Below are positions 38,938-57,318 of a DNA stretch of 64,000 nucleotides, in pieces. The stretch covers positions 11,726 to 75,725 of the forward strand of contig JAHEYP010000014.1 in NCBI GenBank assembly GCA_023251535.1. The letters run 5' to 3'. Source of the stretch: Bacteroidota bacterium (GTDB lineage: Bacteria > Bacteroidota > Bacteroidia > AKYH767-A > OLB10). Positions within the stretch are counted from its first letter, which is position 1; the number at the start of each line of letters is the position of its first letter. Made by a program: the position numbers and the translations under genes. Below the pieces are notes generated by a model. That model searched no databases. It saw nothing but the letters and a program-made list of their open reading frames with translations, and was not told the origin of the DNA.

Positions 38938-40068
38938 TTATTCTTCTGCTTTATTCAGCAGCTTTGATAGAAGAGCATAGGAACCTTTGCTTACCACTTT
39001 GATTCCTTCTTTGATTGTCTCTGAGGACATTAATTCCGTAAATCCATTTTCGGTAACGCCTGGCTTTACTTGAACTTTCCTGTATTTTAAACTACTTTCT
39101 TCAATAAATACAAAAAAGTCGTTTCCATGTTGAGTCACTGATTCATTAGGAACTGCTATCGCCATGCGCATTTCGGAAGCGATTTTTCCTTTCATCGTCA
39201 TTCCGGGAATAAGGTCTTTATACTTTTTCGCAAAATGACAATGTAGTTCAGCATTATGATTCTCATCGAGGTTTCTGTTGATCATATGCACTTTGGCTTC
39301 AAATTGCTCGTTTGGTAACGATGTTGTTGTTGCCATTACAGTCATACCTTCTTTAATCAAATGCAAATCATTTTCGAAAACATATAGCACCAAATGTGTA
39401 TCACTATCGTCGATGATTTCAAATAACGTATTCGATTCGTTGATTAGTTGCCCGGTGTTGATGCTGACTTTCGAAATAAATCCATCAGTAGTTGCCTTGA
39501 TTTCTGCAATTGATGATAAATTGTTTTCCGTTAGCGATTTCGCATTGACGCCTATTAATGAAAGGCTTTCAATTAATGATTTTAAATGCAACTTTTCAGT
39601 CTCGTATTCATTCTTTGCCTTTTCAAATATTTTATCACTACCCGTTTTGTCGGAGTTTAGTTTAAGTTGGCGATTATATTCCGCTTCCAACATTAAAACT
39701 TTCGATTGACTACTTAAATATTCCTGTTGCATATTTAGTATACCTGAGTGTTGAACAATCGCAAGCGTTTGTCCTTTTCTAACCTTTTCTCCTGGTAAAA
39801 CGTTTATCTTTTTTACTGATGCAGGAATTGGAAAGCTTATATAGATCTCGTTTTGTGGAGGAAGTTCTATTTTCCCATTCACAGAAATTTCCGGCGACAT
39901 TTCTCTTAAGCCCGCCGAAACTGTTTCTAATGAGATAGTGTTCTTTTGTGCAGCGGTAAGTTGCACTATAGTTTCATCTTTTTCCGATAATGTTTCTTTA
40001 GTTGGAGATGATTTATCACCACAAGAAATAAAGATGATGGATATTAGAATATATAATATGTTCTTCAT
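38938..40068 (-). CDS. Efflux RND periplasmic adaptor (membrane fusion protein, CzcB/HlyD-like)
   Basis: Lipoprotein-like N-terminus; coiled-coil hairpin plus beta-barrel domains; 4-nt gap to the RND gene. Confidence 0.8.
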   Translation of the reverse strand: MKNILYILISIIFISCGDKSSPTKETLSEKDETIVQLTAAQKNTISLETVSAGLREMSPEISVNGKIELPPQNEIYISFPIPASVKKINVLPGEKVRKGQTLAIVQHSGILNMQQEYLSSQSKVLMLEAEYNRQLKLNSDKTGSDKIFEKAKNEYETEKLHLKSLIESLSLIGVNAKSLTENNLSSIAEIKATTDGFISKVSINTGQLINESNTLFEIIDDSDTHLVLYVFENDLHLIKEGMTVMATTTSLPNEQFEAKVHMINRNLDENHNAELHCHFAKKYKDLIPGMTMKGKIASEMRMAIAVPNESVTQHGNDFFVFIEESSLKYRKVQVKPGVTENGFTELMSSETIKEGIKVVSKGSYALLSKLLNKAEE

Positions 40069-40072
40069 TGTT

Positions 40073-43000
40073 TTAGTTGTTTGTATAGAAAAGAATTTCG
40101 TTTAACGATTCACGTTGATTTGTCCAATTGTCGATTGTAGTTAAATAGGTTCGCAGAATTAACTCACCGGTAAGTACCCATTCGGTATAGTTGATTTCTC
40201 CTTCGTTGAGTTTATTCTTTAATCCGTTCTGTAATTGTCCAACTAATAGTAAGTCGGTACTAAGCGACCTTTCCAATATCGCTGTGCTAATTCGATATTT
40301 CGACAGCGCAATATTGATGTCATTGTCGATTTTTATACTCGATTTGGTTTTGTTCAGTTCATTGATTCGCAATCTGGCTTTCGATTTCTTTAAACCACTT
40401 CCGTAGTTGAAGCAAATCAACGGAATTTGTATTCCCGCATCAAATGATTGGTAGTTGATATTTGATAGGTAAGAAGAGGAAGTGCCTTCGCTGTTAAATG
40501 ACTGTAACGAATATCCTGCTCTAAACTTGGGGAAGAATTTAGCTTTTTCGATTTGGATAGCTCTGTTTAGAATTTCACTTTCTAATGTTATATGTTTTAT
40601 CGATAACTGTTCGGATTTTGAAATTGAGGATGTATCAATTTTCTCTATTGATAGTGATTTTAACATCGTAGGCTTAATGTAGTAATCAACTTGTATCAAT
40701 GATCTTAAATTACTTCCAACTTCAAATATTTGCTGGTTATTGTTTTGTAATTCGTTTAACAGATTATTTCTCCTTAGTTTCATTTGCAGTAATTCTCCAA
40801 CTCCGATTTCTCCTGCGTCGAACATTTGCTGGAATCTTTCTTGTGCTTTTGCGAATAAGCTATCCGTTTGAGTGAGTAAGGTTGCTTTGTATTGTAATGC
40901 GCTTAATTCATCGTAAAGATTTCGCACTGATTTGCTGATTTCTTTTTCGAATAATTTTCGCTCGTTTTCATTCTGTAAAAGCTTTATGTTGTTTTGCTTT
41001 TTAGCGGCAATAATTTCAGGGATATTTGGAATGTTTTGAATGAAGGTTATCCTGCTATCATTTGTGTTTCCATTCAAGTTTCCGAAGGATGTCGATATAT
41101 CTAATGGGTCAAATTTTGAATTTGATCTTGATTCGGAATTCATGATTTCAGCATTTAATGAAAACGCTTTTAATGCGCTGTTGTTTTCAATTGCAAGCCG
41201 AACGGCTTCTTCTTTTGAAACTACTTTTATTTCTTGTGCTTCTGCAGTGAAACCGATCATTAATGAAATTGCAATAATCCCTGCCTTGCTGAAATTCAAA
41301 TTCCTTATTTTAGGTTTTCTTTGTTCGAACATCACATAAAGTATTGGTAATACAATTAAGGTTAGTAGCGTTGCAGTTATTAATCCCCCAATCACCACCG
41401 TTGCTAATGGTCGTTGGACTTCAGCACCCGCACCATTGCTTAATGCCATTGGCAAAAATCCTAATGATGCTACACAGGCAGTCATTAATACAGGACGAAG
41501 TCGAATAGATGTTCCTTTTAGTACCAATTGCTTTGGATCTTTCATGCCTTCACGTTTTAATAAATTGAATTCGGTTATGAGTACAATTCCATTGAGTACT
41601 GCGACACCAAACAGAGCAATGAACCCTATACCTGCTGATATACTGAATGGCATATCTCGTAGCCATAAAGCGAATATTCCTCCCATTGCCGACAAAGGAA
41701 TAGCACTAAAGATTAATAGTCCTTGTTTAATTTTGCCGAAAGCAAAATAGAGCATTAGCAAAATTAGAAGAAGAGCAATTGGTACAGCAATCATTAATCG
41801 TTGCCTTGCTTGAATTAGATTTTCAAATTGTCCTCCGTAGGTAATGTAATACCCAGTCGGGAATTTAATTTGATTTTCTGTTTTTTCTTTTAATTCTTTT
41901 ACGATACTCTCGACATCTCTTCCTCTAACATTAAATCCGATTGTTATTCTTCGGTGAGCATCTTCCCTTTGAATTTGATTTGGACCAACTTCAATATTTA
42001 CATCTGCAACTTCTCTCAAAGGGATTATTATTCCATTGTTTTTAACGATTGGTAACGATCCGATATCTTCTGTTTTTGTTCGCGAAGTTGAATCGAGACG
42101 GATAGCAATGTCATAACGTTCTTCGTGCTCATAAACTGACCCTGCTAAATATCCACTGTATGAAGTAGCTATCGCTTTGTTAACTTCTTTTACTGTTATG
42201 TTGTGCTTTATTAATCCATCGCGGTTTACTCTAATAACTAATTGTGGTAATCCTGTGGTCGATTCAACATATAAATCGCGTGCTCCATCAACAGTATTGA
42301 TTATTCTTCCCAGATCATCAGCATATTTACTTAAGCTATCCAAGTCATCGCCGAATATTTTACAAACTACATCTTGGCGTGCGCCCGTCATAAGTTCATT
42401 AAATCGCATTTGCACTGGATATTGAAATCCTGTTGTTACACCCGGCAAATCTTCAACAGCTCTACTCATTTTCTCAGCTAATTCGTCGAAAGTTTTAGCG
42501 CTGGTCCATTCTGATTTGTCTTTCAGAATCACCATCATGTCGCTGGCTTCAATGGGCATAGGGTCGGTTGGAATTTCTCCACTTCCAATTTTAGTTACCA
42601 CTTTTTCGACTTCCGGAAATTTAGACTTTAATATTTCAGCAGTTTTTTGTGTTGCTTGTATAGTTGTGGTTAATGAACTTCCTGTAAGTGTTCTGGTGTC
42701 GACAGCAAAGTCTCCCTCTTCTAATTCAGGAATGAATTCTCCTCCAAGTTGTGATAGTACAACAACCGATAAAACAAATAGAATAATTGACGCTGCTACA
42801 ATTTTCCTAGGTATTAGAAGTGCTTTTTCTAAGATTTTTTTGAATTTGCGTTCAATGGCGATAATTATTCTTTCTGATAAATTACTGCCTTTTTTTATTT
42901 TGCGACTTAATACCAATGAACTCATCATTGGGATATAAGTCAATGAAAGTAGAAATGCACCTAAGATGGCAAACGATACTGTTTGTGCCATAGGCTTAAA

Positions 43001-44428
43001 CATTTTCCCTTCAATTCCTTCAAGTGATAAAATTGGGAGGTATACAATTAGAATAATGATTTGTCCGAATACCGCTGCATTCATCATTTTTCCTGATGAA
43101 GTACGAACTTCTCCGTCCATTTGTAGTTTGCTTACTTCGGTTAATTCAGCGAATTGTTTATTATGGTGAAGTCGATGTAAGATGGCTTCAACAATAATTA
43201 CAGCACCATCAACAATTAGTCCGAAGTCGAGTGCTCCTAAACTCATTAAGTTTCCGCTCACACCAAAGACATTCATTAGAATTATCGCGAACAACATTGA
43301 AAGAGGAATTACTGAAGCTACCAATAATCCTGCTCTGAAATTGCCTAAGAATAATACTAAAATCAATACTACAATTAGTGCCCCTTCAATCAAGTTTCGC
43401 TCTACAGTGGAAATGGCATTGTTCACCATTTTAGTTCTGTCGAGGAATGCTTCGACTTCGACTCCCTCGGGTAAAGTTTTGTTGATTTCTGCGATTTTTT
43501 CTTTTACTTTTTTAATAACTTTAGATGAGTTTTCGCCCTTTAACATCATTACAACTGCTCCGCATACCTCACTTTTATTGTTGTATAGTACTGCTCCATA
43601 TCGAACCGCAGAACCAATTTTCACTTCAGCCACATCTTTAACCTTTACCGAAGTTCCATTGCTGGTTTGCTTAATTGGAATGGATTCAATTTCTTGTTGA
43701 TTTTTTACAAGTCCCTCACTGCGTATGTATAAAACACTTGGACCCTTTTCTATATATGCACCTCCTGTATTTTGATTGTTTTGTTCAACCGCATCAATCA
43801 CATCTTGCAATGAAACTTGAAGAGATTTGAGCTTTTCAGGATTAATGGCTATTTCGAATTGCTTTAATTTACCCCCGAAAGAGCTGACATCGGCAACACC
43901 TTCGGTTCCGAGTAATTGTTTACGGATAATCCAATCTTGAATACTTCGAAGTTCCTGCAATGAATATTTGTTTTCATATCCTTTAGCAGGTTTTACTACG
44001 TATTGATAAATTTCTCCTAGACCAGTTGTTACTGGACCTAATTCAGGTCTTCCTACTTCAGGAGGAATTATTGAGGCGACTTGTTGGAGACGTTCGTTTA
44101 CTTGAGTCCTAGCCCAGTAAATATCAGTTTCGTCTTTAAATACTATCGTAACAACTGATAATCCGAAGCGAGAAAACGATCGTTGTTCGATGATACCCGG
44201 TATGTTTCGAGTTACTTGCTCGATAGGAGCAGTGATGATTCTTTCTATATCGGCAGCGCCATAAGAAGGAGATGATGTAATAATTGTTACCTGATTATTG
44301 GTAATATCGGGAACGGCATCGATAGGAAGTTGAGTAGCATTATAAACTCCGCCCACTATAAGTAGTAGAACAAATAAGCCTACAATCAACTTGTTTTTTA
44401 TCGATAGCCGGATGATTTTTTCCAGCAT
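40073..44428 (-). CDS. CzcA/CusA-family heavy-metal efflux RND pump fused in frame to a TolC-like outer-membrane factor (1451 aa)
   Basis: First ~1040 aa match the full 12-TM CzcA architecture and end ...VLPILYVMFEQRK; then a signal-peptide-like hydrophobic segment (NFSKAGIIAISLMIGFTAEAQ) and a ~400-aa OMF-like alpha/beta domain. Confidence 0.8.
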   Translation of the reverse strand: MLEKIIRLSIKNKLIVGLFVLLLIVGGVYNATQLPIDAVPDITNNQVTIITSSPSYGAADIERIITAPIEQVTRNIPGIIEQRSFSRFGLSVVTIVFKDETDIYWARTQVNERLQQVASIIPPEVGRPELGPVTTGLGEIYQYVVKPAKGYENKYSLQELRSIQDWIIRKQLLGTEGVADVSSFGGKLKQFEIAINPEKLKSLQVSLQDVIDAVEQNNQNTGGAYIEKGPSVLYIRSEGLVKNQQEIESIPIKQTSNGTSVKVKDVAEVKIGSAVRYGAVLYNNKSEVCGAVVMMLKGENSSKVIKKVKEKIAEINKTLPEGVEVEAFLDRTKMVNNAISTVERNLIEGALIVVLILVLFLGNFRAGLLVASVIPLSMLFAIILMNVFGVSGNLMSLGALDFGLIVDGAVIIVEAILHRLHHNKQFAELTEVSKLQMDGEVRTSSGKMMNAAVFGQIIILIVYLPILSLEGIEGKMFKPMAQTVSFAILGAFLLSLTYIPMMSSLVLSRKIKKGSNLSERIIIAIERKFKKILEKALLIPRKIVAASIILFVLSVVVLSQLGGEFIPELEEGDFAVDTRTLTGSSLTTTIQATQKTAEILKSKFPEVEKVVTKIGSGEIPTDPMPIEASDMMVILKDKSEWTSAKTFDELAEKMSRAVEDLPGVTTGFQYPVQMRFNELMTGARQDVVCKIFGDDLDSLSKYADDLGRIINTVDGARDLYVESTTGLPQLVIRVNRDGLIKHNITVKEVNKAIATSYSGYLAGSVYEHEERYDIAIRLDSTSRTKTEDIGSLPIVKNNGIIIPLREVADVNIEVGPNQIQREDAHRRITIGFNVRGRDVESIVKELKEKTENQIKFPTGYYITYGGQFENLIQARQRLMIAVPIALLLILLMLYFAFGKIKQGLLIFSAIPLSAMGGIFALWLRDMPFSISAGIGFIALFGVAVLNGIVLITEFNLLKREGMKDPKQLVLKGTSIRLRPVLMTACVASLGFLPMALSNGAGAEVQRPLATVVIGGLITATLLTLIVLPILYVMFEQRKPKIRNLNFSKAGIIAISLMIGFTAEAQEIKVVSKEEAVRLAIENNSALKAFSLNAEIMNSESRSNSKFDPLDISTSFGNLNGNTNDSRITFIQNIPNIPEIIAAKKQNNIKLLQNENERKLFEKEISKSVRNLYDELSALQYKATLLTQTDSLFAKAQERFQQMFDAGEIGVGELLQMKLRRNNLLNELQNNNQQIFEVGSNLRSLIQVDYYIKPTMLKSLSIEKIDTSSISKSEQLSIKHITLESEILNRAIQIEKAKFFPKFRAGYSLQSFNSEGTSSSYLSNINYQSFDAGIQIPLICFNYGSGLKKSKARLRINELNKTKSSIKIDNDINIALSKYRISTAILERSLSTDLLLVGQLQNGLKNKLNEGEINYTEWVLTGELILRTYLTTIDNWTNQRESLNEILFYTNN

Positions 44429-45764: not shown

Positions 45765-46193
45765 ATGGAGAATTTAACCGATATTAAATGTCCGAAGTGC
45801 CAGTCCTATAGGGTCATTAAAAGTGGAATTGTTAATAGTAAACAGCGCTTTTGTTGTAAGAATTGCAGTTATTATTTTACGGTTGATAAGCTGGGCAAGC
45901 GTATCGATTCATATTATGTGACCAAAGCTCTGCAGTTGTATATCGAAGGACTTAGCTCTCGAGAAATTGAACGTTTGTTAGGTATTAGTCATGTTTCTGT
46001 AATGAATTGGGTGAAGCAATATGGTTTGAAACGTCCGGTGAATAGTCAGTATCATCCAAGCTATAAAGTTTTGAATCATTCCGAGTTGGTGGAGTATATG
46101 AGTAAAAAGGAGAATCTTAGTGGTGCAGGATCGGTAATTACTGAGTTGGGTGATAAGTTTATGTTGATTAAATGGGAGCGGTTTAGATCCTGA
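45765..46193 (+). mobile_element. Truncated IS1-family transposase remnant (InsA-like zinc finger + HTH; no DDE/InsB part)
   Basis: CPKCQSYRVIKSG...FCCKNCSYYF zinc ribbon followed by HTH LSSREIERLLGISHVSVMNWV; the ORF ends after 142 aa and no catalytic ORF follows. Confidence 0.55.
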
Positions 46194-46348: not shown

Positions 46349-47767
46349 ATGAAAAAAAATCTATTAACTATTGCCGGTGTTTGCTGTCTGTTGTTAAATG
46401 CATTCGTAGCTTCTGCTCAAGGAGGCGAAGGTTATGGCAGCGGAATCAAAATAAATTTGGATACCACCGGTACCCGATTTATTCGAATTATAAATTGGCA
46501 CCAAGTCTGGGTTCGATATAATGAAAACAATCCCGGTAGTACTGCTAATGGTGAGGCTTCAAATAGTCAAGTTGATTTCGCTATTCGTCGCTCTCGTTTT
46601 TTATTCATGACGCAAATTAGTCCGAAGTTTTTAGTAGTAACTCACTTTGGTATCAATAATCAAACCTTATTAAGCGGGGGCGCTTCGGGACAAGGAGCTG
46701 CCGGTACTGATGGTAAAAAACCTCAATTGTTTTTACACGACCTATGGGCTGAATATGCCATCAAAAAAGAGGTGATGTATTTCGGTGCAGGGTTGAATTA
46801 CTGGCAGGGTCCTTCCCGAAAAGCGAATGCAAGTACACTAAATTTCATGACGCTCGATGCACCGATTCATAATTGGTATAATATCGATGCTACAGATCAA
46901 TTCGGACGTTATCCAGGTATGTATATCAAAGGAAAAATCCTAAAAAGCAGAAAGCTTGATTATCGCTTAGCATTGAACTTTCCTTTTGCTATGCCTGCTG
47001 CAAATGCGCTCACAAAACTTGATACAACTGCTGCTAAAAACAATAAAGTAATAGCTTCTTATCGTGGTTTAGGAATGCAAAAAACAATGACTACAGGATA
47101 TATCATGTATCAGTTTAAGGAGAAAGAAAGTAATGTTCTTCCTTATACTGTCGGTACTTATTTGGGTTCAAAAAAAGTTATCAATGTAGGATTCGGAGGA
47201 AGCTATACTCCTGAAATGATGTGGGCACTTCAGAAAAATTCTTCTACAGGAAAATTAGATACAGTTCGTCAAGATCAACTGCTTTTGGCTGCCGATTTTT
47301 TCATGGACCTGCCGCTTAATAAAAGTAAAGGAACCGCAGTTACTTTGTATGCTTCTGCTCAGTATTGTAATATGGGCGATAACTTCGTTCGTTTAGTGGG
47401 ATTATCGAATCCTACTAATGGATTGAATTCGGAAAGCACTTATTCGGGGACTGGCAATAATGTTCCTGTTGTTGGTACCGGTACAATCATGTACGCTGAA
47501 GCAGGTTATCTTTTTCCTGCAACAAAAATCGGGAAATTTCAACCTTATGTTGCTTGTAACTATGCACAATATGATCGGATATCCGATGCCGTTATGATTA
47601 ATGATGTTGGTGTAAATTACTTAGTGAATGGCCATCATGCAAAAATTACACTCAATTATCGCTCTCGCCCTTATTTCGATTATAAAGATCCAGCTGTTAA
47701 ATATGGTGATATCGTGAAGAAGGGAAATAAGAGTGAAATTACTATGCAATTCCAAGTTTACTTGTAG
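46349..47767 (+). CDS. Outer-membrane beta-barrel porin-like protein
   Basis: Signal peptide MKKNLLTIAGVCCLLLNAFVASAQ; alternating amphipathic strands; C-terminal ...FQVYL. Confidence 0.55.
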   Translation: MKKNLLTIAGVCCLLLNAFVASAQGGEGYGSGIKINLDTTGTRFIRIINWHQVWVRYNENNPGSTANGEASNSQVDFAIRRSRFLFMTQISPKFLVVTHFGINNQTLLSGGASGQGAAGTDGKKPQLFLHDLWAEYAIKKEVMYFGAGLNYWQGPSRKANASTLNFMTLDAPIHNWYNIDATDQFGRYPGMYIKGKILKSRKLDYRLALNFPFAMPAANALTKLDTTAAKNNKVIASYRGLGMQKTMTTGYIMYQFKEKESNVLPYTVGTYLGSKKVINVGFGGSYTPEMMWALQKNSSTGKLDTVRQDQLLLAADFFMDLPLNKSKGTAVTLYASAQYCNMGDNFVRLVGLSNPTNGLNSESTYSGTGNNVPVVGTGTIMYAEAGYLFPATKIGKFQPYVACNYAQYDRISDAVMINDVGVNYLVNGHHAKITLNYRSRPYFDYKDPAVKYGDIVKKGNKSEITMQFQVYL

Positions 47768-47794
47768 GAGTTCTTACCTCAAAAAAATTAAATT

Positions 47795-49360
47795 ATGTCA
47801 GAACAAGCATTTAAAAAGACAATACGTAGTGTAATTGCCGCAAGCTCGGTGGGTACACTTATCGAATGGTACGATTTCTACATCTTTGGTAGTTTGGCTA
47901 CAATCATTTCTACACAGTTTTTCCCTGATGATAAATCTTCAGCTGCGTTACTTTCTACTTTAGCAATATTTGCCGCCGGCTTTATTGTGCGCCCTTTTGG
48001 TGCATTAGTATTTGGACGTTTAGGCGATATGATTGGGCGTAAGTATACTTTCTTGTTAACCCTTGTATTAATGGGCGGATCTACTTTCGCTATCGGATTA
48101 ATACCTACTTATAAAACAATTGGTGTTGCCGCTCCTTTGTTGGTGCTATTGCTTCGCCTCATTCAAGGTTTAGCTCTTGGTGGTGAATATGGTGGTGCTG
48201 CTACTTATGTCGCCGAACATGCTCCTGCTGGTAAAAGAGGATTCTATACCAGCTGGATTCAAACTACAGCAACTCTAGGATTATTCCTTTCATTAGGTGT
48301 GATCCTTACTACAAGAACTACCCTGGGCGTAGAAACATTTAACGATTGGGGATGGAGAATTCCTTTTCTCGTTTCTTCAATCTTGGTTGTAGTTTCCATC
48401 TACATCCGCATGAAGATGCATGAGTCGCCAATGTTTACTAAACTTAAAAAAGAAGGAAGGATTTCTACTAATCCTTTGAAAGAAAGTTTTGGTAAGAAGG
48501 AAAATCTTAAGATGGTTTTATTGGCTTTATTTGGTGCAGTTATGGGACAAGGAGTAATTTGGTATACTGGACAATTCTATGCTCAATCATTCATCGAAAA
48601 TACTTGTAAAGTCGATTTCGCTCAGTCACGGACAATGTTACTTTGGGCTATTGCTTTCGCAACTCCTTTCTTTGTGGTGTTTGGTAGTTGGAGTGATAGA
48701 GTAGGACGTAAATGGATTATGTTAGGAGGGATGTTCCTCGGATTGATTTCTTACCGTAGTATCTATCAAGAGTTGTTGGATGTAACTAACGATAAAAACA
48801 AAGTGGAAGTTGTTGCTGAAAAAACACAATCTTACGAATCAAAACTCGTAACAGGAACTGCTGATTCATTAACCAAAACGATCACTATTCGTAAGTTTGA
48901 AGATGGTGCTGTGTTCAAGGAGACTAAAACAGATACTTTATATGCTGAAGTAGGTAAAGTTACTATAAAACCAACCATTAAAATGGAAAAGACTTTGGGT
49001 AATCATGATTACCGCTGGATGATTTTCTTGGTGTTTATTCAAATCATTTTTGTTACGATGGTATATGGTCCTATTGCTGCCTTCCTCGTAGAAATGTTCC
49101 CAACGCAAATTCGTTATACTTCAATGTCACTGCCATACCATATTGGTAATGGTGTCTTCGGAGGATTGGTACCGTTTATATCAACTCTAATTATTGAGTA
49201 CACTAAAACACCTGATAATCCCGCAGGACAACCTTTAGCAGGGTTGTGGTATCCAATGTCAGTTGCTGCTATCTGTTTAATTATAGGAGTCTTTTATCTG
49301 AGCAATAAAATTGATCAGAATGTAAAAGATGAAGAAAATGCTTACATCCACCATCAATAA
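47795..49360 (+). CDS. MFS transporter, metabolite:H+ symporter (MHS) family, KgtP/ProP-like carboxylate permease with a ~95-aa inserted hydrophilic segment
   Basis: GTLIEWYDFYIFG, RLIQGLALGGEYGGAATYVAEHAPAGKRGFYTS and WGWRIPFL motifs parallel KgtP. Confidence 0.8.
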   Translation: MSEQAFKKTIRSVIAASSVGTLIEWYDFYIFGSLATIISTQFFPDDKSSAALLSTLAIFAAGFIVRPFGALVFGRLGDMIGRKYTFLLTLVLMGGSTFAIGLIPTYKTIGVAAPLLVLLLRLIQGLALGGEYGGAATYVAEHAPAGKRGFYTSWIQTTATLGLFLSLGVILTTRTTLGVETFNDWGWRIPFLVSSILVVVSIYIRMKMHESPMFTKLKKEGRISTNPLKESFGKKENLKMVLLALFGAVMGQGVIWYTGQFYAQSFIENTCKVDFAQSRTMLLWAIAFATPFFVVFGSWSDRVGRKWIMLGGMFLGLISYRSIYQELLDVTNDKNKVEVVAEKTQSYESKLVTGTADSLTKTITIRKFEDGAVFKETKTDTLYAEVGKVTIKPTIKMEKTLGNHDYRWMIFLVFIQIIFVTMVYGPIAAFLVEMFPTQIRYTSMSLPYHIGNGVFGGLVPFISTLIIEYTKTPDNPAGQPLAGLWYPMSVAAICLIIGVFYLSNKIDQNVKDEENAYIHHQ

Positions 49361-49372
49361 AATCACTTTGCT

Positions 49373-49600
49373 ATGTCACAGTTAAGGAAAATATTAGGCA
49401 TCGTATGGATGCTTCTAGGGCCGGCTACTATTATATTTTTAATCAGTCAGGCTTCGCATAAAATCTCTCAACCTACAAGTACAACAAACGATGTGCTGCA
49501 GTGGGGAATCATCATCACCATCTTTGTTCCAATAGCTATCGGACTGATGATATTCGGGTACTATGCCGTAAAAGGAGAGTACGCAGAAATAGAAGAATAA
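49373..49600 (+). CDS. Small 2-TM membrane protein, unknown function
   Basis: 75-aa ORF starting 13 nt after the MFS gene, with two hydrophobic helices. Confidence 0.4.
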   Translation: MSQLRKILGIVWMLLGPATIIFLISQASHKISQPTSTTNDVLQWGIIITIFVPIAIGLMIFGYYAVKGEYAEIEE

Positions 49601-49688
49601 ATTAGTAATTACAATCAGGCCGGTATCGTCGCAGGTCCGGCTTGGTTGTTCTTAATTTATTATGTTGAATTTTGTTTAAATTAGTGCA

Positions 49689-49880
49689 ATGAATAATAGG
49701 GTGTCGTTGAAGCTTGGCGTTTTAGCAGTAGTTGGTTTATTACTGTTCAATTTTCCGTTGCTGAAAACGGTTAATTCTGCTGCCTTTTCTTCGAATTTAC
49801 CGATGATGCCTATTTATTTGTTTGTTTGCTGGATTCTTTTTGTCGCCCTCATTTTTTTAATCGTAAGGAGAAAGATATGA
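49689..49880 (+). CDS. Small 2-TM protein translationally coupled to the sensor kinase (CbrX/DUF485-like)
   Basis: 63-aa ORF; its TGA stop overlaps the kinase ATG (ATGA at 49877-49880). Confidence 0.45.
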   Translation: MNNRVSLKLGVLAVVGLLLFNFPLLKTVNSAAFSSNLPMMPIYLFVCWILFVALIFLIVRRKI

Positions 49881-52579
49881 ATCCGGTGATATTATCGATC
49901 GTATTTGTAGCGTACTTGCTATTACTGTTTTTCATCGCCTTTAAAGCTGAAGGATGGAAGTGGAAGGGACGAAAGATTACTTCATTACCTTTAGTTTATG
50001 CTCTTTCCGTTTCGGTGTTTTGCACGGCGTGGACTTTCTATGGAAGCTTAGGATCTGCATCAACAGGTTCACTTAATTTCTTGGCGGTTTATTTGGGTCC
50101 AACCATTATGGCGCCTTTAGGGTTTTTATTACTTAAAAAATTAGTACGTGTTTGTAAATTACAACAAATAACTTCGTTAGCAGATTTGATCTCATCTCGC
50201 TATGGGAAAAATATTTCATTGGGTTCTATTGTTACTGTTTGTTGTTTTATAGGTATCGTACCTTATCTTTCTCTTCAGTTAAAAGCTATCTCCGAAAGTT
50301 TTAGGATTTTAGGAGGGTATTCGTTCGATTATAAAGGCGTTGATACAATTGCTCTTGTAATCTCTTTCGTCTTAATTGGTTTTACTGTATTGTTTGGGTC
50401 TCGTAAAACACTGACTAGCGAACAGCATAGTGGATTATTAGCAGCAGTAGCTTTTGAATCGATTGTTAAGTTATTTGTATTCCTTCTTGCAGGATTAATT
50501 ATTTCGTATTTGGCATGGAATTCGCTTTCTGTCGGATTGAATTCAGATAGAATTGTGTCGGGATTCGCTTCTTTTTTTAAGGAAAAAGAGCATAGTACTT
50601 TTAATTTTGGTGATTGGTTCTGGGTTGCTTTAATCTCTGGATTTGCTTCTATTTTATTGCCTCGAATGTTTCAAATTAATGTGGTTGAGAATGATTCTGA
50701 ACATAATCTTACGCATTCAGTATGGGTATTTCCTTTTTACCTTTTATTGATTAATATTTTTGTTTTGCCGATTGCTTATGCAGGTTATTTGTTTCTCGGG
50801 AACAATACTATAACAGATTATACTTTATTGCTGCTTCCTTTAAAGTATAATTTGCCTTGGTTGGCTGTTTTCGTTTTTATTGGTGGGATTTCAGCTGCTA
50901 CGAGCATGGTAATTGTAGAAACGATTGCATTGAGTACAATGTTTAGTAATAGTTTAGTAATTCCTTTTTTAGCTCGTCAAGCTAATAGTAATTCGAAGAT
51001 TTCTTCTATTGGAAACAGTACTTTGTTTATCCGGAAGTTCGGCGTGTTCTTTACTATTTTGTCGGCTTATTTGTATTATGAGTTTGTGAGTCATTATACA
51101 AGTTTGATTTCAATCGGATTAATTTCTTTTGTTTCTGTTGCTCAATTTGCTCCTTCAGTTTTTGGAGGATTATATTGGAAGTCAGGAAATAAATACGGTG
51201 CATTGTCAGGTATTATAATAGGGTTCGTTGTTTGGTTTTTTACACTCATCGTTCCTTCGCTCGCACAAAATAATATTTTAAGTCGCGATATAATTGATTA
51301 TGGTTTGTTTCATCTAGCTTGGCTTAAGCCAAATTCATTGTTTGGTCTCGATGGATGGGGTTCAATTGCACATGCTTCGTTTTGGTCACTGTTGTTTAAT
51401 TTTGGTTGTTATATTGTTGTTTCTGTGTGGACAAATCAAACAGAGGAAGAAAAAGCTCAAGCCGAATTATTTGTCGATATTTTCAAGTATTCTGAAGTGT
51501 ATGAGTCTTCGGTTGTTTATAAGGGTGTAGCTTATATTCCCGATGTGAAAGCTTTACTTGCGAACTTTGTAGGTGATGTTCGTGCCAATAACTTAATTAA
51601 CGCCTTTTCTAAACGCCATAAAATTGAAAATGATATTTCTGCAAAGGCAGATCCTCGTATGGTGGCTTTCGTTGAGCGTACATTAAGTGGAATCGTGGGA
51701 TCGGCATCATCTCGTTTAATGGTTGCTACTGTCGTTAAAGAGGAAGAAGTGAGCGTCCAAGAGTTGATGGGTGTACTAAAGGAATCGCAGAGCCTTATCG
51801 CTTTGAACAATGAATTGAAACGAAAAACAATTGAGTTGAATAATACTAAAAGTGATTTGGAGGATACAAATCGTAAGTTAATTCAGCTTGACGAATTGAA
51901 GGACGATTTTTTAACTACCGTAACTCATGAATTGCGTACTCCAATTACTTCTATTCGTGCATTTTCTGAAATTTTGTATGATAATCCTGATATGGAGATC
52001 GAAGATCGTCAACATTATACTAACATTATAACTCGCGAAACGGAACGTATTACTCGATTAATTGCTCAAGTTTTGGACTTAGAGAAATATGAATCGGGAC
52101 GGCAAAAATTGCACCTTACTCGATTTGATTTATATGATGTTGTTATAAGTGTTATTGAAGGTATGCAACAGCTGGTTGCTGAAAAGCAAATCAATATCAA
52201 TGTCACAGAATTTTCTCACTTAGTGATTGCTGATGAAGATAAAATTACACAAGTACTAATCAACTTAATTAGCAATGCAGTGAAATTTGTCCCTCAAAAC
52301 ACAGGAGAGATTTCTATCGAATGTTCATTAGTTAGTGGTATGATTAATTTAGTGGTATCTGATAATGGTAAAGGAATCGATCCTCAGTTTCATGAGTTGA
52401 TTTTCGATAAATTCTATCAAGCAGAAAATCAAACTATACGTAAACCGAAAGGTAGCGGATTAGGTTTAGCAATCTGCAAAAAAATTATGCAACTGCATGG
52501 CGGTGATATTTCGTTGAGAAGTATTCTTGGTCAGGGCAGTGAATTCACAATAATATTTCCAATTAATAGGGAGGTTTAG
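49877..52579 (+). CDS. Sensor histidine kinase with N-terminal sodium:solute symporter (SLC5/SSS) domain, CbrA/CrbS-like, no receiver domain
   Basis: N-terminus YALSVSVFCTAWTFYGSLGSA...SLADLISSRYG parallels the CbrA SSS domain (about 13 TM helices); coiled coil; HisKA H-box LTTVTHELRTPITSIRAFSEIL; HATPase_c (DNGKGIDP...GSGLGLAICK). Confidence 0.8.
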   Translation: MNPVILSIVFVAYLLLLFFIAFKAEGWKWKGRKITSLPLVYALSVSVFCTAWTFYGSLGSASTGSLNFLAVYLGPTIMAPLGFLLLKKLVRVCKLQQITSLADLISSRYGKNISLGSIVTVCCFIGIVPYLSLQLKAISESFRILGGYSFDYKGVDTIALVISFVLIGFTVLFGSRKTLTSEQHSGLLAAVAFESIVKLFVFLLAGLIISYLAWNSLSVGLNSDRIVSGFASFFKEKEHSTFNFGDWFWVALISGFASILLPRMFQINVVENDSEHNLTHSVWVFPFYLLLINIFVLPIAYAGYLFLGNNTITDYTLLLLPLKYNLPWLAVFVFIGGISAATSMVIVETIALSTMFSNSLVIPFLARQANSNSKISSIGNSTLFIRKFGVFFTILSAYLYYEFVSHYTSLISIGLISFVSVAQFAPSVFGGLYWKSGNKYGALSGIIIGFVVWFFTLIVPSLAQNNILSRDIIDYGLFHLAWLKPNSLFGLDGWGSIAHASFWSLLFNFGCYIVVSVWTNQTEEEKAQAELFVDIFKYSEVYESSVVYKGVAYIPDVKALLANFVGDVRANNLINAFSKRHKIENDISAKADPRMVAFVERTLSGIVGSASSRLMVATVVKEEEVSVQELMGVLKESQSLIALNNELKRKTIELNNTKSDLEDTNRKLIQLDELKDDFLTTVTHELRTPITSIRAFSEILYDNPDMEIEDRQHYTNIITRETERITRLIAQVLDLEKYESGRQKLHLTRFDLYDVVISVIEGMQQLVAEKQININVTEFSHLVIADEDKITQVLINLISNAVKFVPQNTGEISIECSLVSGMINLVVSDNGKGIDPQFHELIFDKFYQAENQTIRKPKGSGLGLAICKKIMQLHGGDISLRSILGQGSEFTIIFPINREV

Positions 52580-52581
52580 TT

Positions 52582-52944
52582 ATGTATAAAATATTGATTG
52601 CCGATGATGAGCCAAACATCCTTTTATCGCTTGAATTTTTAATGCGAAAAAGTGGATATAATGTGTTTATTGCTCGAAATGGCTCGGAAGCTATGGAAAT
52701 CATAAATCGTGATAAACCTCAGTTGGTGGTATTAGATATTATGATGCCGGATATTGATGGATATCAAATTTGCACTCATATCAAATCATCAAAAGAACTG
52801 TCAGATTGCAAAGTAGTATTTCTTTCCGCCAAGGCAAAAGAAGGTGATATTAAAAAAGGATTAGAAATTGGAGCGGATGCGTATCTGACAAAACCGTTTT
52901 CTACCCGTGTATTAATGCAAAAAATAAGTGAACTGTTAAAGTAA
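52582..52944 (+). CDS. Stand-alone CheY-like response-regulator receiver domain (no output domain)
   Basis: ILIADDEPN...VVLDIMMPDIDG...AYLTKPF; 120 aa; starts 3 nt after the kinase stop. Confidence 0.85.
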   Translation: MYKILIADDEPNILLSLEFLMRKSGYNVFIARNGSEAMEIINRDKPQLVVLDIMMPDIDGYQICTHIKSSKELSDCKVVFLSAKAKEGDIKKGLEIGADAYLTKPFSTRVLMQKISELLK

Positions 52945-52957
52945 AATTCATATCACC

Positions 52958-54880
52958 ATGACACCATATCGTCAATTATATCGTCGTAGTATTGAAAACC
53001 CTGAGGCTTTTTGGGGTGAGCAAGCATCGTTAATTAAATGGTTTAAATCGCCAGAGAATATTCTTTCTCGTGATGAAAAAGGACTTTATCGATGGTATAG
53101 TGATGGTGTAATGAATACTTGTTATTTAGCGGTCGATAAACATGTGGAAGAGGGCAGAGGTGATCAAGTTGCTTTGATTTATGATTCTCCCGTTACAAAG
53201 GTTGTAGAGAAGTTTACTTATAATGATCTGCAAAAAAATGTTTCTACGCTTGCTGGTGGATTGCAAAAATTAGGAGTACAAAAGGGTGATCGTGTTGTGA
53301 TTTATATGCCTTTAGTTCCCGAAGCTTTATTTTCAATGTTGGCTTGCGCTAGAATTGGAGCCGTGCATTCAGTGGTGTTCGGCGGATTCGCTCCACATGA
53401 ATTAGCTGTTCGTATTGATGATGCGCAACCGAAAGTAATAATTTCTGCTTCTTGCGGAATAGAAATCGATCGCGTGATTGCTTATAAGCCAATGCTCGAT
53501 GATGCAATTAGTAAATCGATTTTCAAACCTCAGCATACTGTGATTTTACAACGTCCTATGATGACCGCCGATATGTGGCCCGGTCGCGATGTTGATTATA
53601 ATGAATTGGTGCAAAATTCCCCTTCTGCAGATTGTGTTCCATTAAATGCGAATGATCCTCTTTATATTCTTTATACGAGTGGAACAACAGGTAAACCGAA
53701 AGGAATATTACGCGATAATGGAGGTCATGCTGTAGCATTACGTTTTAGCATGGATCATATTTATAATGTTAAAGCCGGTGATGTGTTCTGGGCTGCAAGT
53801 GATGTGGGTTGGGTTGTAGGACATAGCTATATGGTTTATGGTCCTTTGTTGCAAGGCTGCACTACATTGCTCTATGAAGGAAAGCCTGTCCGCACTCCCG
53901 ATGCAGGAGCTTTCTGGCGAGTTGTGGAACAACATAAAGTGAATATTCTATTTACTGCTCCAACTGCATTCCGTGCTATTAAGAAAGAAGATCCCGAAGG
54001 TGAGTTGCTTCACAAGTATGATATTTCTTCATTGCATCGTTTGTATTTGGCAGGTGAACGTTGTGATGTCCCAACTTGGTATTGGGCTACTGAAATGTTG
54101 AAAGTTCCTGTTGTTGATCATTGGTGGCAAACAGAAAGCGGATGGCCTATCGTGGCTCAAATGCCTTCTATTGAGGAACATCTTTTATTGAAGCCTGGCT
54201 CTGCAGGTAAACCGATTCCGGGATATAAAATTGATGTGCTTAATGAAGAGGGTGAATTATTGATTCCTAATCAAGAGGGATTTGTTGCAATCAAATTACC
54301 TCTTCCTCCCGGATGCTTACCTGATTTGTACAACGATACTGATCGTTTCATTTCATCCTACCTTGAGAAATTCCCTGGTTACTATTTAACAGGTGATGGC
54401 GGATATAAGGATGAAGAGGATTATGTTTATATTATGGGTAGAGTTGATGATGTGATTAATGTCGCAGGACATCGATTATCTACCGGTGAAATGGAGGAGA
54501 TGGTGGCAGCTCATCCGTTCGTTGCAGAATGTGCTGTAGTTGGCATAGCCGACGAATTAAAAGGTCATCTTCCTCTTGCTTATGTTGTAGTTAGAGATGG
54601 TGTTGTGCCCAACGAATTACTTATCGAAAAGGAATTAGTAAAGTTGATTCGTGATAATATCGGAGCCGTTGCTTGTTTTAAAAATTGTGTTCTCGTTAAG
54701 CGCTTGCCAAAAACGCGATCAGGGAAAATTCTTCGACGCTTACTTCGAAATATCGCCGATGGTGAACATTATATTGTTCCAAGTACTATCGATGATCCTC
54801 TAATTTTAACAGAGGTTCATGATGCACTAAAGGCCCGCCGTATAGGGCAGGCCTTCATAGGTGTGGTGGATGATGAGTAA
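52958..54880 (+). CDS. prpE: Propionate--CoA ligase (PrpE; acyl-CoA synthetase, Acs-like)
   Basis: N-terminus and core (YRRSIENPEAFWGEQA..., LACARIGAVHSVVFGGFA, YTSGTTGKPKG, ...PKTRSGKILRR, C-terminal IDDP...) track PrpE closely. Confidence 0.7.
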   Translation: MTPYRQLYRRSIENPEAFWGEQASLIKWFKSPENILSRDEKGLYRWYSDGVMNTCYLAVDKHVEEGRGDQVALIYDSPVTKVVEKFTYNDLQKNVSTLAGGLQKLGVQKGDRVVIYMPLVPEALFSMLACARIGAVHSVVFGGFAPHELAVRIDDAQPKVIISASCGIEIDRVIAYKPMLDDAISKSIFKPQHTVILQRPMMTADMWPGRDVDYNELVQNSPSADCVPLNANDPLYILYTSGTTGKPKGILRDNGGHAVALRFSMDHIYNVKAGDVFWAASDVGWVVGHSYMVYGPLLQGCTTLLYEGKPVRTPDAGAFWRVVEQHKVNILFTAPTAFRAIKKEDPEGELLHKYDISSLHRLYLAGERCDVPTWYWATEMLKVPVVDHWWQTESGWPIVAQMPSIEEHLLLKPGSAGKPIPGYKIDVLNEEGELLIPNQEGFVAIKLPLPPGCLPDLYNDTDRFISSYLEKFPGYYLTGDGGYKDEEDYVYIMGRVDDVINVAGHRLSTGEMEEMVAAHPFVAECAVVGIADELKGHLPLAYVVVRDGVVPNELLIEKELVKLIRDNIGAVACFKNCVLVKRLPKTRSGKILRRLLRNIADGEHYIVPSTIDDPLILTEVHDALKARRIGQAFIGVVDDE

Positions 54881-54883
54881 AAA

Positions 54884-55400
54884 TTATTGAATCGCAACTC
54901 GACTTTGATATAATCCTTTGTCGGTTGTTACATTGATAATGTAAATGCCTTTAGCGAACAAACTCTTGTCGAAGCTAACTGTTGATTCTTGATTCTGTAT
55001 TTCTGTAATTAAACTTCCGTTGCTGTTGAAAATTTGTGCCGATTCAATTTTGGTTGAGTTCATGGCAACTATTTCAATGCTGTTTGCAAGATTCTTAACA
55101 ACTAGATTATTGCTGTTGCTGATTTCTTGTATTCCAACGCCATTAACAATTACCGGTGCAGATGTCGCCGGACAACCAATCGAGTCTACAATTGTAACAG
55201 TGTATGTTCCGTTTTGTGTTGCAGTATATGATTGATTTGTTCCTGTTACTATCGGCTGACCATTATAGTTCCATTGGTAAGTTGTTGCTGAAGTTGACGT
55301 TAATACGGCACCGTTAGTAGTAATAATAGGAGTTAATGATCCTTGATAGAAAGGAACGTTAGTTGATAGTGATCCTGATGTTAATGTTCCCGCATTTCCA
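54884..55400. repeat. Near-identical (>95%) direct repeat, copy 1 (3' half of the LamG/T9SS gene)
   Basis: Aligns at offset +1220 to 56104-56620 with only scattered SNPs. Confidence 0.8.
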
Positions 55401-56098
55401 CTTGTTGTTTGATCAGGAATATTAGTTCCGCTTGCTACATTAAAGTTCCAATACCCCACTAACCCCGGTGATGTTGGTGAAATATGACGATTGTATCCTG
55501 CTAAAATTTCAGAACGTGATAAAGCTCGATCCCAAATTCTGGCTTCATCAATTTGTCCACTGAAAAATCTACTTGGTGTTCCACTTCCTTCCGACCATCT
55601 TCCTATACATAATGGAAATGCTGTTGATGGAACTATCGATCCTCTAAATGCAGTAGCCCCAACTTCAATTGTGTTTAGGTAGATTTTTAAACTGTCGCCG
55701 TCATAAACTCCCGCAACATGTTGCCAAGTGTTTAGCGAAAGTGTGTTAATAGGACTTATTATTTCTTTCCATGTTGCCACTAATCCTGAACTGTCGGTGC
55801 CTGCAATTGCAAATGATAATTGCCCCATTCCACCACATCTAATTACATAACCTTGCTTTCCTTGGCTAGAACTGTGTTTGCATATAATGGAATTTGTAAA
55901 CGACGAAGTCCCGAAAGTTGATGGTTTAATCCATGCTTCTAAGGTTACTGTACTATCAAGTGATAAATTGGTGCTATTTACAAAGGAAACATAGCCTGAA
56001 GTTCCACCCAATAAAATCGATTTTGTATTGGCAGTGCATTGTGCATTACAATTTACATAAATTGAGCATAACAATACTAAGGTTGCAAGATGTTTCAT
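54884..56098 (-). CDS. T9SS-secreted LamG (concanavalin-like) domain protein, downstream copy of a tandem paralog pair
   Basis: Signal peptide; LamG-like jelly-roll domain; Ig-like domain; T9SS C-terminal domain (...GIYIINVTTDKGLYQSRVAIQ). Confidence 0.65.
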   Translation of the reverse strand: MKHLATLVLLCSIYVNCNAQCTANTKSILLGGTSGYVSFVNSTNLSLDSTVTLEAWIKPSTFGTSSFTNSIICKHSSSQGKQGYVIRCGGMGQLSFAIAGTDSSGLVATWKEIISPINTLSLNTWQHVAGVYDGDSLKIYLNTIEVGATAFRGSIVPSTAFPLCIGRWSEGSGTPSRFFSGQIDEARIWDRALSRSEILAGYNRHISPTSPGLVGYWNFNVASGTNIPDQTTSGNAGTLTSGSLSTNVPFYQGSLTPIITTNGAVLTSTSATTYQWNYNGQPIVTGTNQSYTATQNGTYTVTIVDSIGCPATSAPVIVNGVGIQEISNSNNLVVKNLANSIEIVAMNSTKIESAQIFNSNGSLITEIQNQESTVSFDKSLFAKGIYIINVTTDKGLYQSRVAIQ

Positions 56099-56103
56099 AG
56101 TTC

Positions 56104-56620
56104 TTATTGTATCGCAACACGACTTTGATATAATCCTTTGTCGGTTGTTACATTGATAATGTAAATTCCTTTAGCGAATTGGCTTTTATTGAAGCTAACT
56201 GTTGATTCTTGATTCTGTATTTCTGCAATTAAACTTCCGTTGCTGTTGAAAATTTGTGCCGATTCAATTTTGGTTGAGTTCATGGCAACTATTTCAATGC
56301 TGTTTGAAAGATTCTTAACGACTAGATTATTGCTGTTGTTGATTTCTTGTATTCCAACGCCATTAACAATTACCGGTGCAGATGTCGCCGGACAACCAAT
56401 CGAGTCTACAATTGTAACAGTGTATGTTCCGTTTTGCGTTGCAGTATATGATTGATTTGTTCCAGTTACAATCGGCTGACCATTATAGTTCCATTGGTAA
56501 GTTGTTGCTGAAGTTGACGTTAATACGGCACCGTTAGTAGAAATAATAGGAGTTAAAGATCCTTGAAAGAATGGTACATTCGTTGAAAGTGATCCTGATG
56601 TTAATGTTCCCGCATTTCCA
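56104..56620. repeat. Near-identical direct repeat, copy 2
   Basis: See copy 1; the 5' halves (LamG domains) diverge to roughly 65-70% identity. Confidence 0.8.
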
Positions 56621-57318
56621 CTCGATGTTTGATCAGGTAAACTTGTTCCTGCTGCAATATTGAAGTTCCAATACCCTGCTAATCCAGGTGAAGTAGGAGA
56701 GATATGACGATTGTATCCTGCAGCTAGTTCAGTTTGCGATACAGCTCTGTTCCATACTCTTACTTCATCAATTTGTCCACTAAAATATCTGCTGGCACCA
56801 ACTCCAGGATCCGACAACCTGCCAATAACGGCCGGGAATGATGTTGATGGTACAATAGATCCTTTGAATGCATATGCGGTAACTTGAATTGTATTTACAA
56901 ATAATCGGGCTGTATCACCATCATATGTAGCTGCAACATGTTGCCATGTATTTAATGTTAATGCACTTGTAGGGCTAACTACATTCTGCCAACTAGTTGG
57001 TGTGCCGGTACTATCAAGACCTGCAAAATTAAAGGATAGCTGTCCGCTGGCACCACATCTTAAAACATAACCCATTTCTCCTTGCGTCCAACTGTGTTTG
57101 CAGAATATGGAATTGGTGTAGTTGTTGGCTCCAAATGCTGTTGGTTTTATCCAAGCTTCCACCGTGATAGCACTGTCAATTTGTAAATTGCTATCTGTCG
57201 TAAATGACACATAGCTACTCGTACCATTTAATACAATTGATTTGGTGTTTGCTGTACATTGGCTGTATGCTTGTGTGCCAAATCCTAAGGTTAAAATAAG
57301 CAGTAGAATTCTTTTCAT
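56104..57318 (-). CDS. T9SS-secreted LamG domain protein, upstream copy of the tandem paralog pair
   Basis: Same architecture as the 54884-56098 gene; C-terminal ~170 aa nearly identical; 5-nt intergenic spacer. Confidence 0.65.
   Translation of the reverse strand: MKRILLLILTLGFGTQAYSQCTANTKSIVLNGTSSYVSFTTDSNLQIDSAITVEAWIKPTAFGANNYTNSIFCKHSWTQGEMGYVLRCGASGQLSFNFAGLDSTGTPTSWQNVVSPTSALTLNTWQHVAATYDGDTARLFVNTIQVTAYAFKGSIVPSTSFPAVIGRLSDPGVGASRYFSGQIDEVRVWNRAVSQTELAAGYNRHISPTSPGLAGYWNFNIAAGTSLPDQTSSGNAGTLTSGSLSTNVPFFQGSLTPIISTNGAVLTSTSATTYQWNYNGQPIVTGTNQSYTATQNGTYTVTIVDSIGCPATSAPVIVNGVGIQEINNSNNLVVKNLSNSIEIVAMNSTKIESAQIFNSNGSLIAEIQNQESTVSFNKSQFAKGIYIINVTTDKGLYQSRVAIQ

Follow-up and report, generated by a model that had tools for sequence, protein, structure and literature searches.

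A stand-alone receiver between a CbrA-like sensor kinase and a PrpE-like acyl-CoA synthetase in Bacteroidota: a possible split receiver-enzyme regulator

Results

Genes at the locus

We analysed a stretch of 64,000 nucleotides (nt) from a Bacteroidota bacterium (assembly GCA_023251535.1, contig JAHEYP010000014.1, positions 11,726 to 75,725 of the forward strand), hereafter called the window. Our subject is the gene at 52582-52944, which encodes a response-regulator receiver (REC) of 120 amino acids (aa). It is located between the gene of a CbrA-like sensor histidine kinase and that of a PrpE-like AMP-forming short-chain acyl-CoA synthetase. These three genes are part of a tight cluster of seven plus-strand open reading frames (ORFs) spanning 46349-54880:

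46349..47767, + strand: porin-like outer-membrane protein, 472 aa, the first gene of the cluster; weak NCBIfam match to ExtI (E 7e-12)
47795..49360, + strand: MFS metabolite/H+ symporter (MHS family), 521 aa; Pfam Sugar_tr and MFS_1
49373..49600, + strand: DUF6814 small membrane protein, 75 aa; Pfam PF20664 (E 4e-30)
49689..49880, + strand: CbrX-like ORF with two hydrophobic helices, 63 aa; assigned by position, size and topology
49877..52579, + strand: sensor histidine kinase, 900 aa; match to PDB entry 10ED, Pfam HisKA and HATPase_c
52582..52944, + strand: stand-alone receiver, 120 aa; Pfam Response_reg
52958..54880, + strand: PrpE-like AMP-forming short-chain acyl-CoA synthetase, 640 aa; Pfam ACAS_N, AMP-binding and AMP-binding_C

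The kinase stop codon TAG (52577-52579) is separated from the receiver ATG (52582) by a gap of 2 nt. After the receiver stop codon TAA (52942-52944), 13 nt remain before the ATG of the PrpE-like gene (52958), which is read in another frame. On an ENA contig that is 100% identical, independent gene calling yielded the same products of 900, 120, and 640 aa. A first-pass annotation of this DNA had described a 120-aa receiver with nothing else attached, and had considered that mis-called gene boundaries might conceal an output domain. We checked this and found that it is not so in this genome, where the boundaries hold and the genes are truly separate. A frameshift artefact as the origin of the split is also ruled out, because the frames are separate, the stop and start are clean, and the independent gene calls are concordant.

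The receiver protein

Response_reg is the only Pfam domain of the receiver and covers residues 4-115 of 120 (E 6e-30); a second match, to PDE8A_N, is sub-threshold and REC-like. With its phospho-acceptor set intact (D8, D9, D52, S82, the switch residue Y101, and K104), the receiver should be phosphorylatable. The Asp52 codon is located at 52735-52737. The alpha1 helix, which serves kinase docking, is among the most conserved parts of the protein (I13, L17, F19, L20).

The closest solved structures belong to the OmpR family, namely YycF (3f6p, E 2e-27), PhoP (1mvo), and PhoB, and the single-domain regulator RR468 (3dge_C) is matched at E 2e-18. NCBIfam matches are confined to the N-terminal halves of OmpR-type models. 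From these comparisons, the protein looks like an OmpR-lineage receiver that lacks the winged-helix domain. It is nearer to OmpR-family receivers than to the chemotaxis protein CheY, and neither che nor flagellar genes were found among the ORFs scanned around the locus.

The architecture of relatives was taken from a word-indexed search. Its best 120 receiver homologues (62-93% identity) are all 118-150 aa long and consist of REC only, although several carry the label "response regulator transcription factor" or "DNA-binding response OmpR family regulator" at source. Two relatives at 93% identity (P0391 and P0392, 25 contigs together) also have 120 aa. An exhaustive HMMER search with the receiver was uninformative on architecture, as its top 150 hits were multi-receiver proteins whose summed scores outrank those of the true orthologues. 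Because the 120 best homologues and 66 of the 70 orthologues described below likewise consist of REC only, the single-domain state is no local truncation.

The kinase and the small ORF at its start

In the kinase, Pfam recognises HisKA (residues 675-741, E 1.5e-16) and HATPase_c (residues 786-896, E 4.8e-29) and nothing else, and the protein ends at residue 900, 4 residues past HATPase_c. Receiver, histidine phosphotransfer (Hpt), and PAS domains were not found by Pfam (PAS at E ≤0.01), in agreement with the first-pass statement that the kinase itself lacks a receiver. PF00072 is likewise absent from the best 120 kinase homologues, and the close relatives are never hybrid kinases.

For the first ~560 residues, Pfam and NCBIfam yielded no match of any kind, SSF included, even at E 10; a few kinase homologues do carry a precomputed match to PF00474 (SSF). 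In a phmmer comparison, residues 8-531 match the PDB chain 10ED_A at E 1e-64. A family profile built from 21 sequences extends the match to positions 5-623 (E 6e-108) and reaches chain residue 590 of 606. The entry 10ED is a cryo-electron microscopy structure of a CbrX-CbrA SLC5-STAC construct from Pseudomonas putida (PMC13488458). The SLC5-like part with 13 transmembrane (TM) segments, together with the STAC part, is thus assigned to aa 5-623 (nt 49889-51745), and the earlier description of the sensor half as CbrA-like is borne out by these matches, STAC domain included.

The phosphorylatable histidine of the H-box HELRTP is His684 (nt 51926-51928). Only ~60 residues, a short coiled linker, separate it from the end of the STAC match (~623). 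This spacing, together with the missing Pfam match, indicates that this kinase lacks the PAS domain known from CbrA and CrbS. The best solved match to the kinase core, i.e., DHp (the domain for dimerisation and histidine phosphotransfer) plus CA (the catalytic one), is HK853 (E 3e-35).

The stop codon TGA of the 63-aa ORF upstream overlaps the kinase ATG as ATGA, and the hydrophobic segments of its product are residues 7-25 and 41-59. The public gene caller missed this ORF (49689-49880), but small ORF homologues occupy the same position at 50 of 80 kinase loci across phyla. The cbrX gene encodes a helical-hairpin peptide of ~58 aa, is translationally coupled to cbrA, and its product is bound to the SLC5 part of CbrA (PMC13488458). 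A profile of the 63-aa ORF against the PDB gave no match to the CbrX chain, and a match to PsbH was judged to be a chance match. The ORF is therefore called CbrX-like by analogy of position, size, and topology only.

Pairing of kinase and receiver across the family

A scan for relatives of the kinase, with one genome per species, gave at least 587 loci in Bacteroidota, Desulfobacterales, Burkholderiales/Thauera, Chromatiaceae, Alphaproteobacteria, and other groups. We inspected the best 80 of these (numbered from L001), which are not a random sample, and the synteny counts depend on our own ORF calling and phmmer thresholds. Orthologous receivers scored 94-188 bits, whereas all remaining REC domains at the 80 loci scored at most 57 bits. 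Receivers with at most 20 residues beyond the REC domain were counted as stand-alone.

An orthologous receiver was found at 70 of the 80 loci, 66 times stand-alone and four times fused to a synthetase, and a DNA-binding domain was attached to it at none of the 70. At most of the 80 loci, which come from Bacteroidota, Beta- and Gammaproteobacteria, and further phyla, it lies on the same strand as the kinase gene and within ~180 nt of the kinase stop or overlapping it. The ten loci without it are chiefly Desulfobacterales or short contigs. The kinase-receiver arrangement is thus a family trait rather than a local oddity, and we regard it as settled, or nearly so, that the receiver is the cognate partner of the PAS-less CbrA-type kinase.

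The synthetase recurs beside this pair in several arrangements. At 25 Bacteroidota loci, a PrpE-/Acs-like gene either begins within 250 nt after the receiver or is fused to it. In three Desulfobacterales loci (L053, L058, L059), PrpE and then REC are encoded on the opposite strand, 2.2-2.5 kb from the kinase. In Betaproteobacteria, the place directly upstream of the small ORF and the kinase is taken by an Acs gene. Since adjacency persists across such rearranged loci, no companion of the pair is more constant than an AMP-forming short-chain acyl-CoA synthetase, a parallel to the established regulation of acs by CrbS/R (PMC5436829). A 222-aa "receiver" at L058 had looked like a PrpE-REC fusion, but this ORF had been called too long, and from its real start it has ~121 aa.

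Among the matches listed, the kinase closest to that of the window (51% identity) is encoded at L001 (CALRIT020000013.1), a contig of a metagenome-assembled genome (MAG) labelled Vulcanococcus limneticus, a cyanobacterium. This contig carries a Bacteroidota-type cluster of porin, MFS, DUF6814, kinase, and receiver genes and is probably mis-binned.

Receiver-synthetase fusions

In four of the inspected loci (L013, L023, L027, L029), the kinase gene is directly followed by a single ORF of 762-767 aa in which REC is N-terminal to the PrpE orthologue, and none of these loci has a separate receiver. The receiver occupies residues ~5-125, is about 60% identical to that of the window, and is joined to the PrpE orthologue by a linker of ~10 residues. 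With the L013 fusion as the query, we found at least 19 clusters (90% identity) that combine PF00072, ACAS_N, and AMP-binding and are 57-100% identical to it. Together, these clusters comprise more than 200 member sequences, which were obtained from many samples; a 1.16-Mb contig and a Flavobacteriales MAG are among the sources. Across 16 aligned fusions, the DDD motif, D56, and K108-P-F do not vary. The invariance of the DDD motif, D56, and K108 suggests that the fused receiver is still a phospho-acceptor. In the literature searched, which is itself incomplete so that an absence weighs little, neither a receiver-acyl-CoA synthetase fusion nor a stand-alone receiver as the partner of an SLC5/STAC kinase was found to be described.

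The PrpE-like synthetase

The window's synthetase carries Lys590, the catalytic and acetylatable lysine, in the motif PKTRSGK. Its best NCBIfam matches are the propionate--CoA ligase models, but it falls below their cut-offs (769 bits for NF007815, cut-off 955; 727 bits for TIGR02316, cut-off 827) and passes only the acetate--CoA ligase subfamily model (674 bits, cut-off 657). As the PrpE equivalog cut-offs are missed, we call the enzyme "PrpE-like" and regard propionate or acetate as its putative substrate.

Other features of the window

The upstream genes of the cluster are part of a conserved synteny. The porin-like gene precedes the MFS gene in many Bacteroidota loci, the position of the MFS gene is kept among related loci, and the DUF6814 gene sits between MFS gene and kinase in Bacteroidota loci. 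No Pfam match was found for the porin-like protein of 472 aa. The MFS protein matches the NCBIfam metabolite/H+ symporter model TIGR00883 at E 1e-108, which is below the cut-off of the model. Between 45600 and 55400, the number of promoter-like sites equals the shuffled expectation, with a sigma-70 consensus that is ill-suited to Bacteroidota. Terminator-like sites in the same region amount to ~2x the shuffled expectation, and the majority lie within genes.

Further ORFs of the window were noted as side observations:

45765-46193, + strand: ORF of 142 aa just 5' of the porin gene, with Pfam matches at E 7e-5 to 9e-4 to the Zn-ribbon InsA N-terminal domain and to helix-turn-helix (HTH) domains, the majority below gathering cut-offs; it may be an IS1 InsA-like protein, either a mobile-element remnant or a small regulator
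54884-56098 and 56104-57318, - strand: tandem paralogues of 404 aa, each with Laminin_G_3, a PKD-like domain, and a type IX secretion system (T9SS) sorting tail
40073-44428, - strand: one continuous ORF of 1451 aa with a complete AcrB-type RND transporter (ACR_tran, residues 5-1034) and the OEP domain of an outer-membrane factor (from residue 1073)
38938-40068: HlyD-type adaptor gene that adjoins the 1451-aa ORF
22119-23899, - strand: LytTR-type two-component pair, with one gene for a His_kinase protein (PF06580, 357 aa) and one for a REC-LytTR protein (236 aa)

The two 404-aa paralogues are 75% identical overall, and their C-terminal ~165 residues are near-identical, which suggests a recent duplication or gene conversion. 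The 1451-aa ORF is either an unusual fusion of inner- and outer-membrane components or an artefact of assembly or frameshift.

Discussion

A candidate target for the receiver

The first-pass annotation had concluded that the output must go through protein-protein interaction or a phosphorelay. This stands, as neither the receiver of the window nor its 66 stand-alone orthologues have a DNA-binding or enzymatic domain. Of the two branches, the evidence favours protein-protein interaction. The candidate target is the product of the gene 13 nt downstream, which had served the first-pass annotation merely to mark a boundary. The PrpE-like enzyme is singled out because it is fused in frame to the receiver in the at least 19 clusters from other Bacteroidota; in those relatives, the neighbouring enzyme is the receiver's attached output domain.

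We tentatively propose that the receiver, when phosphorylated at Asp52, acts directly on the adjacent PrpE-like enzyme and that the window holds a split receiver-enzyme regulator. Though the likeliest of the readings considered here, it falls a little short of what we would call probable. It is based on the cognate pairing, the lack of a DNA-binding output, the fusions, the kept adjacency, and the gaps of 2 and 13 nt. In such a circuit, the kinase would sense a small carboxylate (propionate or acetate), or its flux, through the transporter-like domain and would autophosphorylate on His684, from which the phosphoryl group would move to Asp52 of the receiver. The receiver would then contact the PrpE-like enzyme directly and alter its activity or oligomeric state, with a change of oligomerisation or the relief of an inhibition as a simple mechanism. 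Substrate availability at the membrane would thus be coupled to substrate activation without a transcriptional step. OmpR-lineage receivers typically dimerise via the alpha4-beta5-alpha5 face when phosphorylated, and this would offer a simple route to change the oligomeric state of an enzyme. A precedent for contact between a receiver and Acs would be CheY of E. coli, which is reportedly acetylated by Acs.

Two further observations are in line with the proposal. When the enzyme parts were placed in a rough neighbour-joining tree, computed without support values, the fused proteins fell into at least four groups amid unfused relatives, and this interleaving points to repeated fusion or fission. 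For a natural fusion, AlphaFold2 predicted a canonical REC domain followed by an Acs fold with a predicted local distance difference test (pLDDT) of 86 and a predicted template modelling (pTM) score of 0.72, a result that covers the domain folds and not the REC-Acs interface.

Several points weigh against this proposal, besides these limits of the tree and of the prediction. Phosphotransfer, the ligand, and above all the binding and regulation of PrpE by an unfused receiver are steps that we infer. Fusion alone is no proof of regulation, since PrpE-like and Acs-like enzymes are themselves fused in tandem by pathway proximity. Flavobacteriia (Lutibacter, Psychroflexus, Brumimicrobium) commonly have such double enzymes as single ORFs of ~1272-1287 aa, which also occur in Pontibacter (e.g., L002:10101-13952 and L074:10245-14069; proteins P0128 and P0130-P0170).

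The synteny has exceptions as well. Five Bacteroidota loci (L003, L005, L016, L017, L022) have the receiver without an adjoining synthetase. At 15 or more of the 80 loci (at least L036, L040, L041, L048, L051-L056, L058, L059, L068, L075, and L080), the receiver is followed by a gene for a PAS + RNase_T protein of 720-790 aa (DEDD exonuclease), in many cases 4 nt apart from it or overlapping it by 4 nt (e.g., L056:10106-12343 and L052:10117-12288). The hosts are Beta-, Alpha-, and Gammaproteobacteria, Desulfobacterales, and one Anaerolineae MAG. A CBS + DUF294 + DUF294_C nucleotidyltransferase takes this place at four Chromatiaceae-type loci (L060, L066, L071, L076), and a REC + GerE (LuxR-type) regulator on the same strand at four proteobacterial loci (L038:6344-6994, L049:5177-5821, L069:4872-5504, L070:9841-10758). 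In the Proteobacteria with such companions, the Acs gene lies upstream of the kinase. Hence, the conserved target of the receiver may differ from the synthetase. OmpR-type regulators on the opposite strand at some proteobacterial loci were judged to be unrelated neighbours.

Other readings of the receiver

If the receiver, as a shuttle or connector, linked the kinase to a transcription factor from another part of the genome, through an Hpt relay or by binding a regulator or sigma factor, the output would be transcription of the operon. We consider this unlikely, even though all characterised SLC5/STAC kinases end in transcription control (PMC5436829, PMC9927547, PMC7918813) and the four REC + GerE genes stand directly after the receiver. 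Our view of regulators covers the 64-kb window of the genome, and those encoded elsewhere fall outside it. Within it, the kinase lacks an Hpt domain, and the only other response regulator (22119-22829, - strand) is of the LytTR type and has its own adjacent His_kinase. The operon also differs from a Spo0F-type relay in that it encodes neither an Hpt/Spo0B-type phosphotransferase nor a terminal regulator. Across the 35 Bacteroidota loci, no DNA-binding regulator is conserved beside the pair, an HTH_3/Peptidase_M78 gene after the receiver at L001 being an exception. In the fused lineages, the enzyme's own REC is the only local partner of the kinase. Finally, the H-box HELRTP contains an E-x-x-T motif, as typically seen in bifunctional kinases with control over a terminal regulator.

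The companions in Proteobacteria raise another alternative, in which the conserved target is a different carboxylate-linked class, e.g., the DUF294 or RNase_T proteins, with a counterpart at another site of the genome studied here, and the PrpE fusion is a side branch of one lineage. In P. putida, pp_0354, which encodes a CBS-domain protein, is a direct ErdR target in an operon with pp_0353, which encodes a member of the RNase_T family, and both are treated as MxtR/ErdR targets (PMC9927547). The CBS/DUF294, RNase_T, and LuxR-type neighbours place the family in the functional neighbourhood of CrbS/R. Presumably, the pp_0354 protein also carries DUF294. However, phmmer found no RNase_T-like ORF in the window, where DUF294 was not specifically searched for, and we saw no fusion of the orthologous receiver to either class. 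Bacteroidota place the synthetase beside the receiver and not the DUF294 or RNase_T proteins, and we regard the alternative as quite doubtful. More improbable still is a role as a phosphate sink, which would drain or buffer the kinase's phosphoryl groups, or as a feedback element that would bind the kinase or its transporter domain and so tune signalling or transport, without any downstream target. Single-domain receivers do act as sinks elsewhere, e.g., the CheY-type ones in Sinorhizobium chemotaxis, and the conserved alpha1 helix docks on the kinase. But a sink needs a main pathway, no other local partner of the kinase was seen at the 66 loci with a stand-alone receiver, and where the two are fused, the receiver is physically tied to the enzyme.

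Comparison with known systems

CbrA/CbrB: The kinases of CbrA/B (Pseudomonas), MxtR/ErdR, and PrlS/R pair with DNA-binding regulators (PMC7918813), as does RpuS with RpuR, and the locus differs from CbrAB and CrbSR in this respect, as the first-pass annotation had noted. With CbrA, the window kinase shares a homologous SLC5-like 13-TM and STAC part and the lack of a receiver of its own, and a small two-helix ORF overlaps its start codon as in CbrA/CbrX. Unlike CbrA, it has no PAS domain between STAC and DHp, and no sequence similarity to CbrX was detected for the 63-aa ORF. CbrB is an NtrC-type activator (REC-AAA+-HTH), whereas the partner in the window is a receiver of 120 aa. The context is also different, with carboxylate uptake and activation here versus histidine use or catabolite repression for CbrAB.

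CrbS/CrbR: CrbS/R and MxtR/ErdR, known from Vibrio and Pseudomonas, activate acs and actP (PMC5436829, PMC9927547), and RpuS/R is reported to regulate mctP expression (PMC9100948). As in CrbS/CrbR, an SLC5/STAC kinase is tied to an AMP-forming acetyl/propionyl-CoA synthetase and carboxylate uptake (PMC5436829, PMC9927547). In CrbS, the receiver follows the kinase core on the same polypeptide, whereas in the window it has a gene of its own directly after that of the kinase. In some proteobacterial relatives, a LuxR-type regulator, as CrbR is, comes in addition, and this layout resembles a split CrbS plus CrbR. Neither the window locus nor other Bacteroidota loci have a LuxR-type regulator, and the PAS domain is missing. 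The link to the synthetase consists of adjacency and fusion here, as opposed to the demonstrated promoter control by CrbS/R.

HK853/RR468: This pair from Thermotoga maritima offers a structural model for the phosphotransfer step, as HK853 matches the kinase core and the RR468 PDB chain has 122 residues, consistent with a stand-alone receiver. The sensor domain of HK853, unlike that of the window kinase, is not a transporter. To our knowledge, the output of RR468 is not known, and it provides no model for the step after phosphorylation.

CheB, PleD, and RpfG: In these proteins, as in the fused relatives of the receiver, REC is joined to an enzyme, which is a general design of phospho-controlled enzymes. 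In the window, unlike in these proteins, receiver and enzyme are separate genes. An AMP-forming acyl-CoA synthetase as the domain attached to a receiver was not found in the literature searched.

Implications

All characterised SLC5/STAC "transceptor" kinases (CbrA, CrbS/MxtR, RpuS, PrlS) are understood as transcription switches. The present locus belongs to a large uncharacterised SLC5/STAC branch that occurs in at least 587 species-representative genomes from several phyla and whose paired receiver has no DNA-binding domain. Kinase family and receiver type are each known, and what is new and uncharacterised is their combination and its likely output. By gene position and topology at least, a CbrX-like peptide extends beyond Pseudomonas-type systems.

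It is possible, although we would not yet lean towards it, that the window represents the split form of an undescribed class of response regulators whose output is an AMP-forming short-chain acyl-CoA synthetase. In it, phosphorylation by a transporter-like kinase would let the receiver itself switch the enzyme for activation of the transported carboxylate. Such a transcription-independent circuit would be widespread in Bacteroidota, with other partners in Proteobacteria and Desulfobacterota. If true, many database names that imply a transcription factor or an OmpR DNA-binding regulator would need correcting, and a concrete output would be at hand for a stand-alone receiver, a class with few known targets. 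Acs-family enzymes would then be under two kinds of post-translational control, two-component phosphorylation in addition to lysine acetylation.

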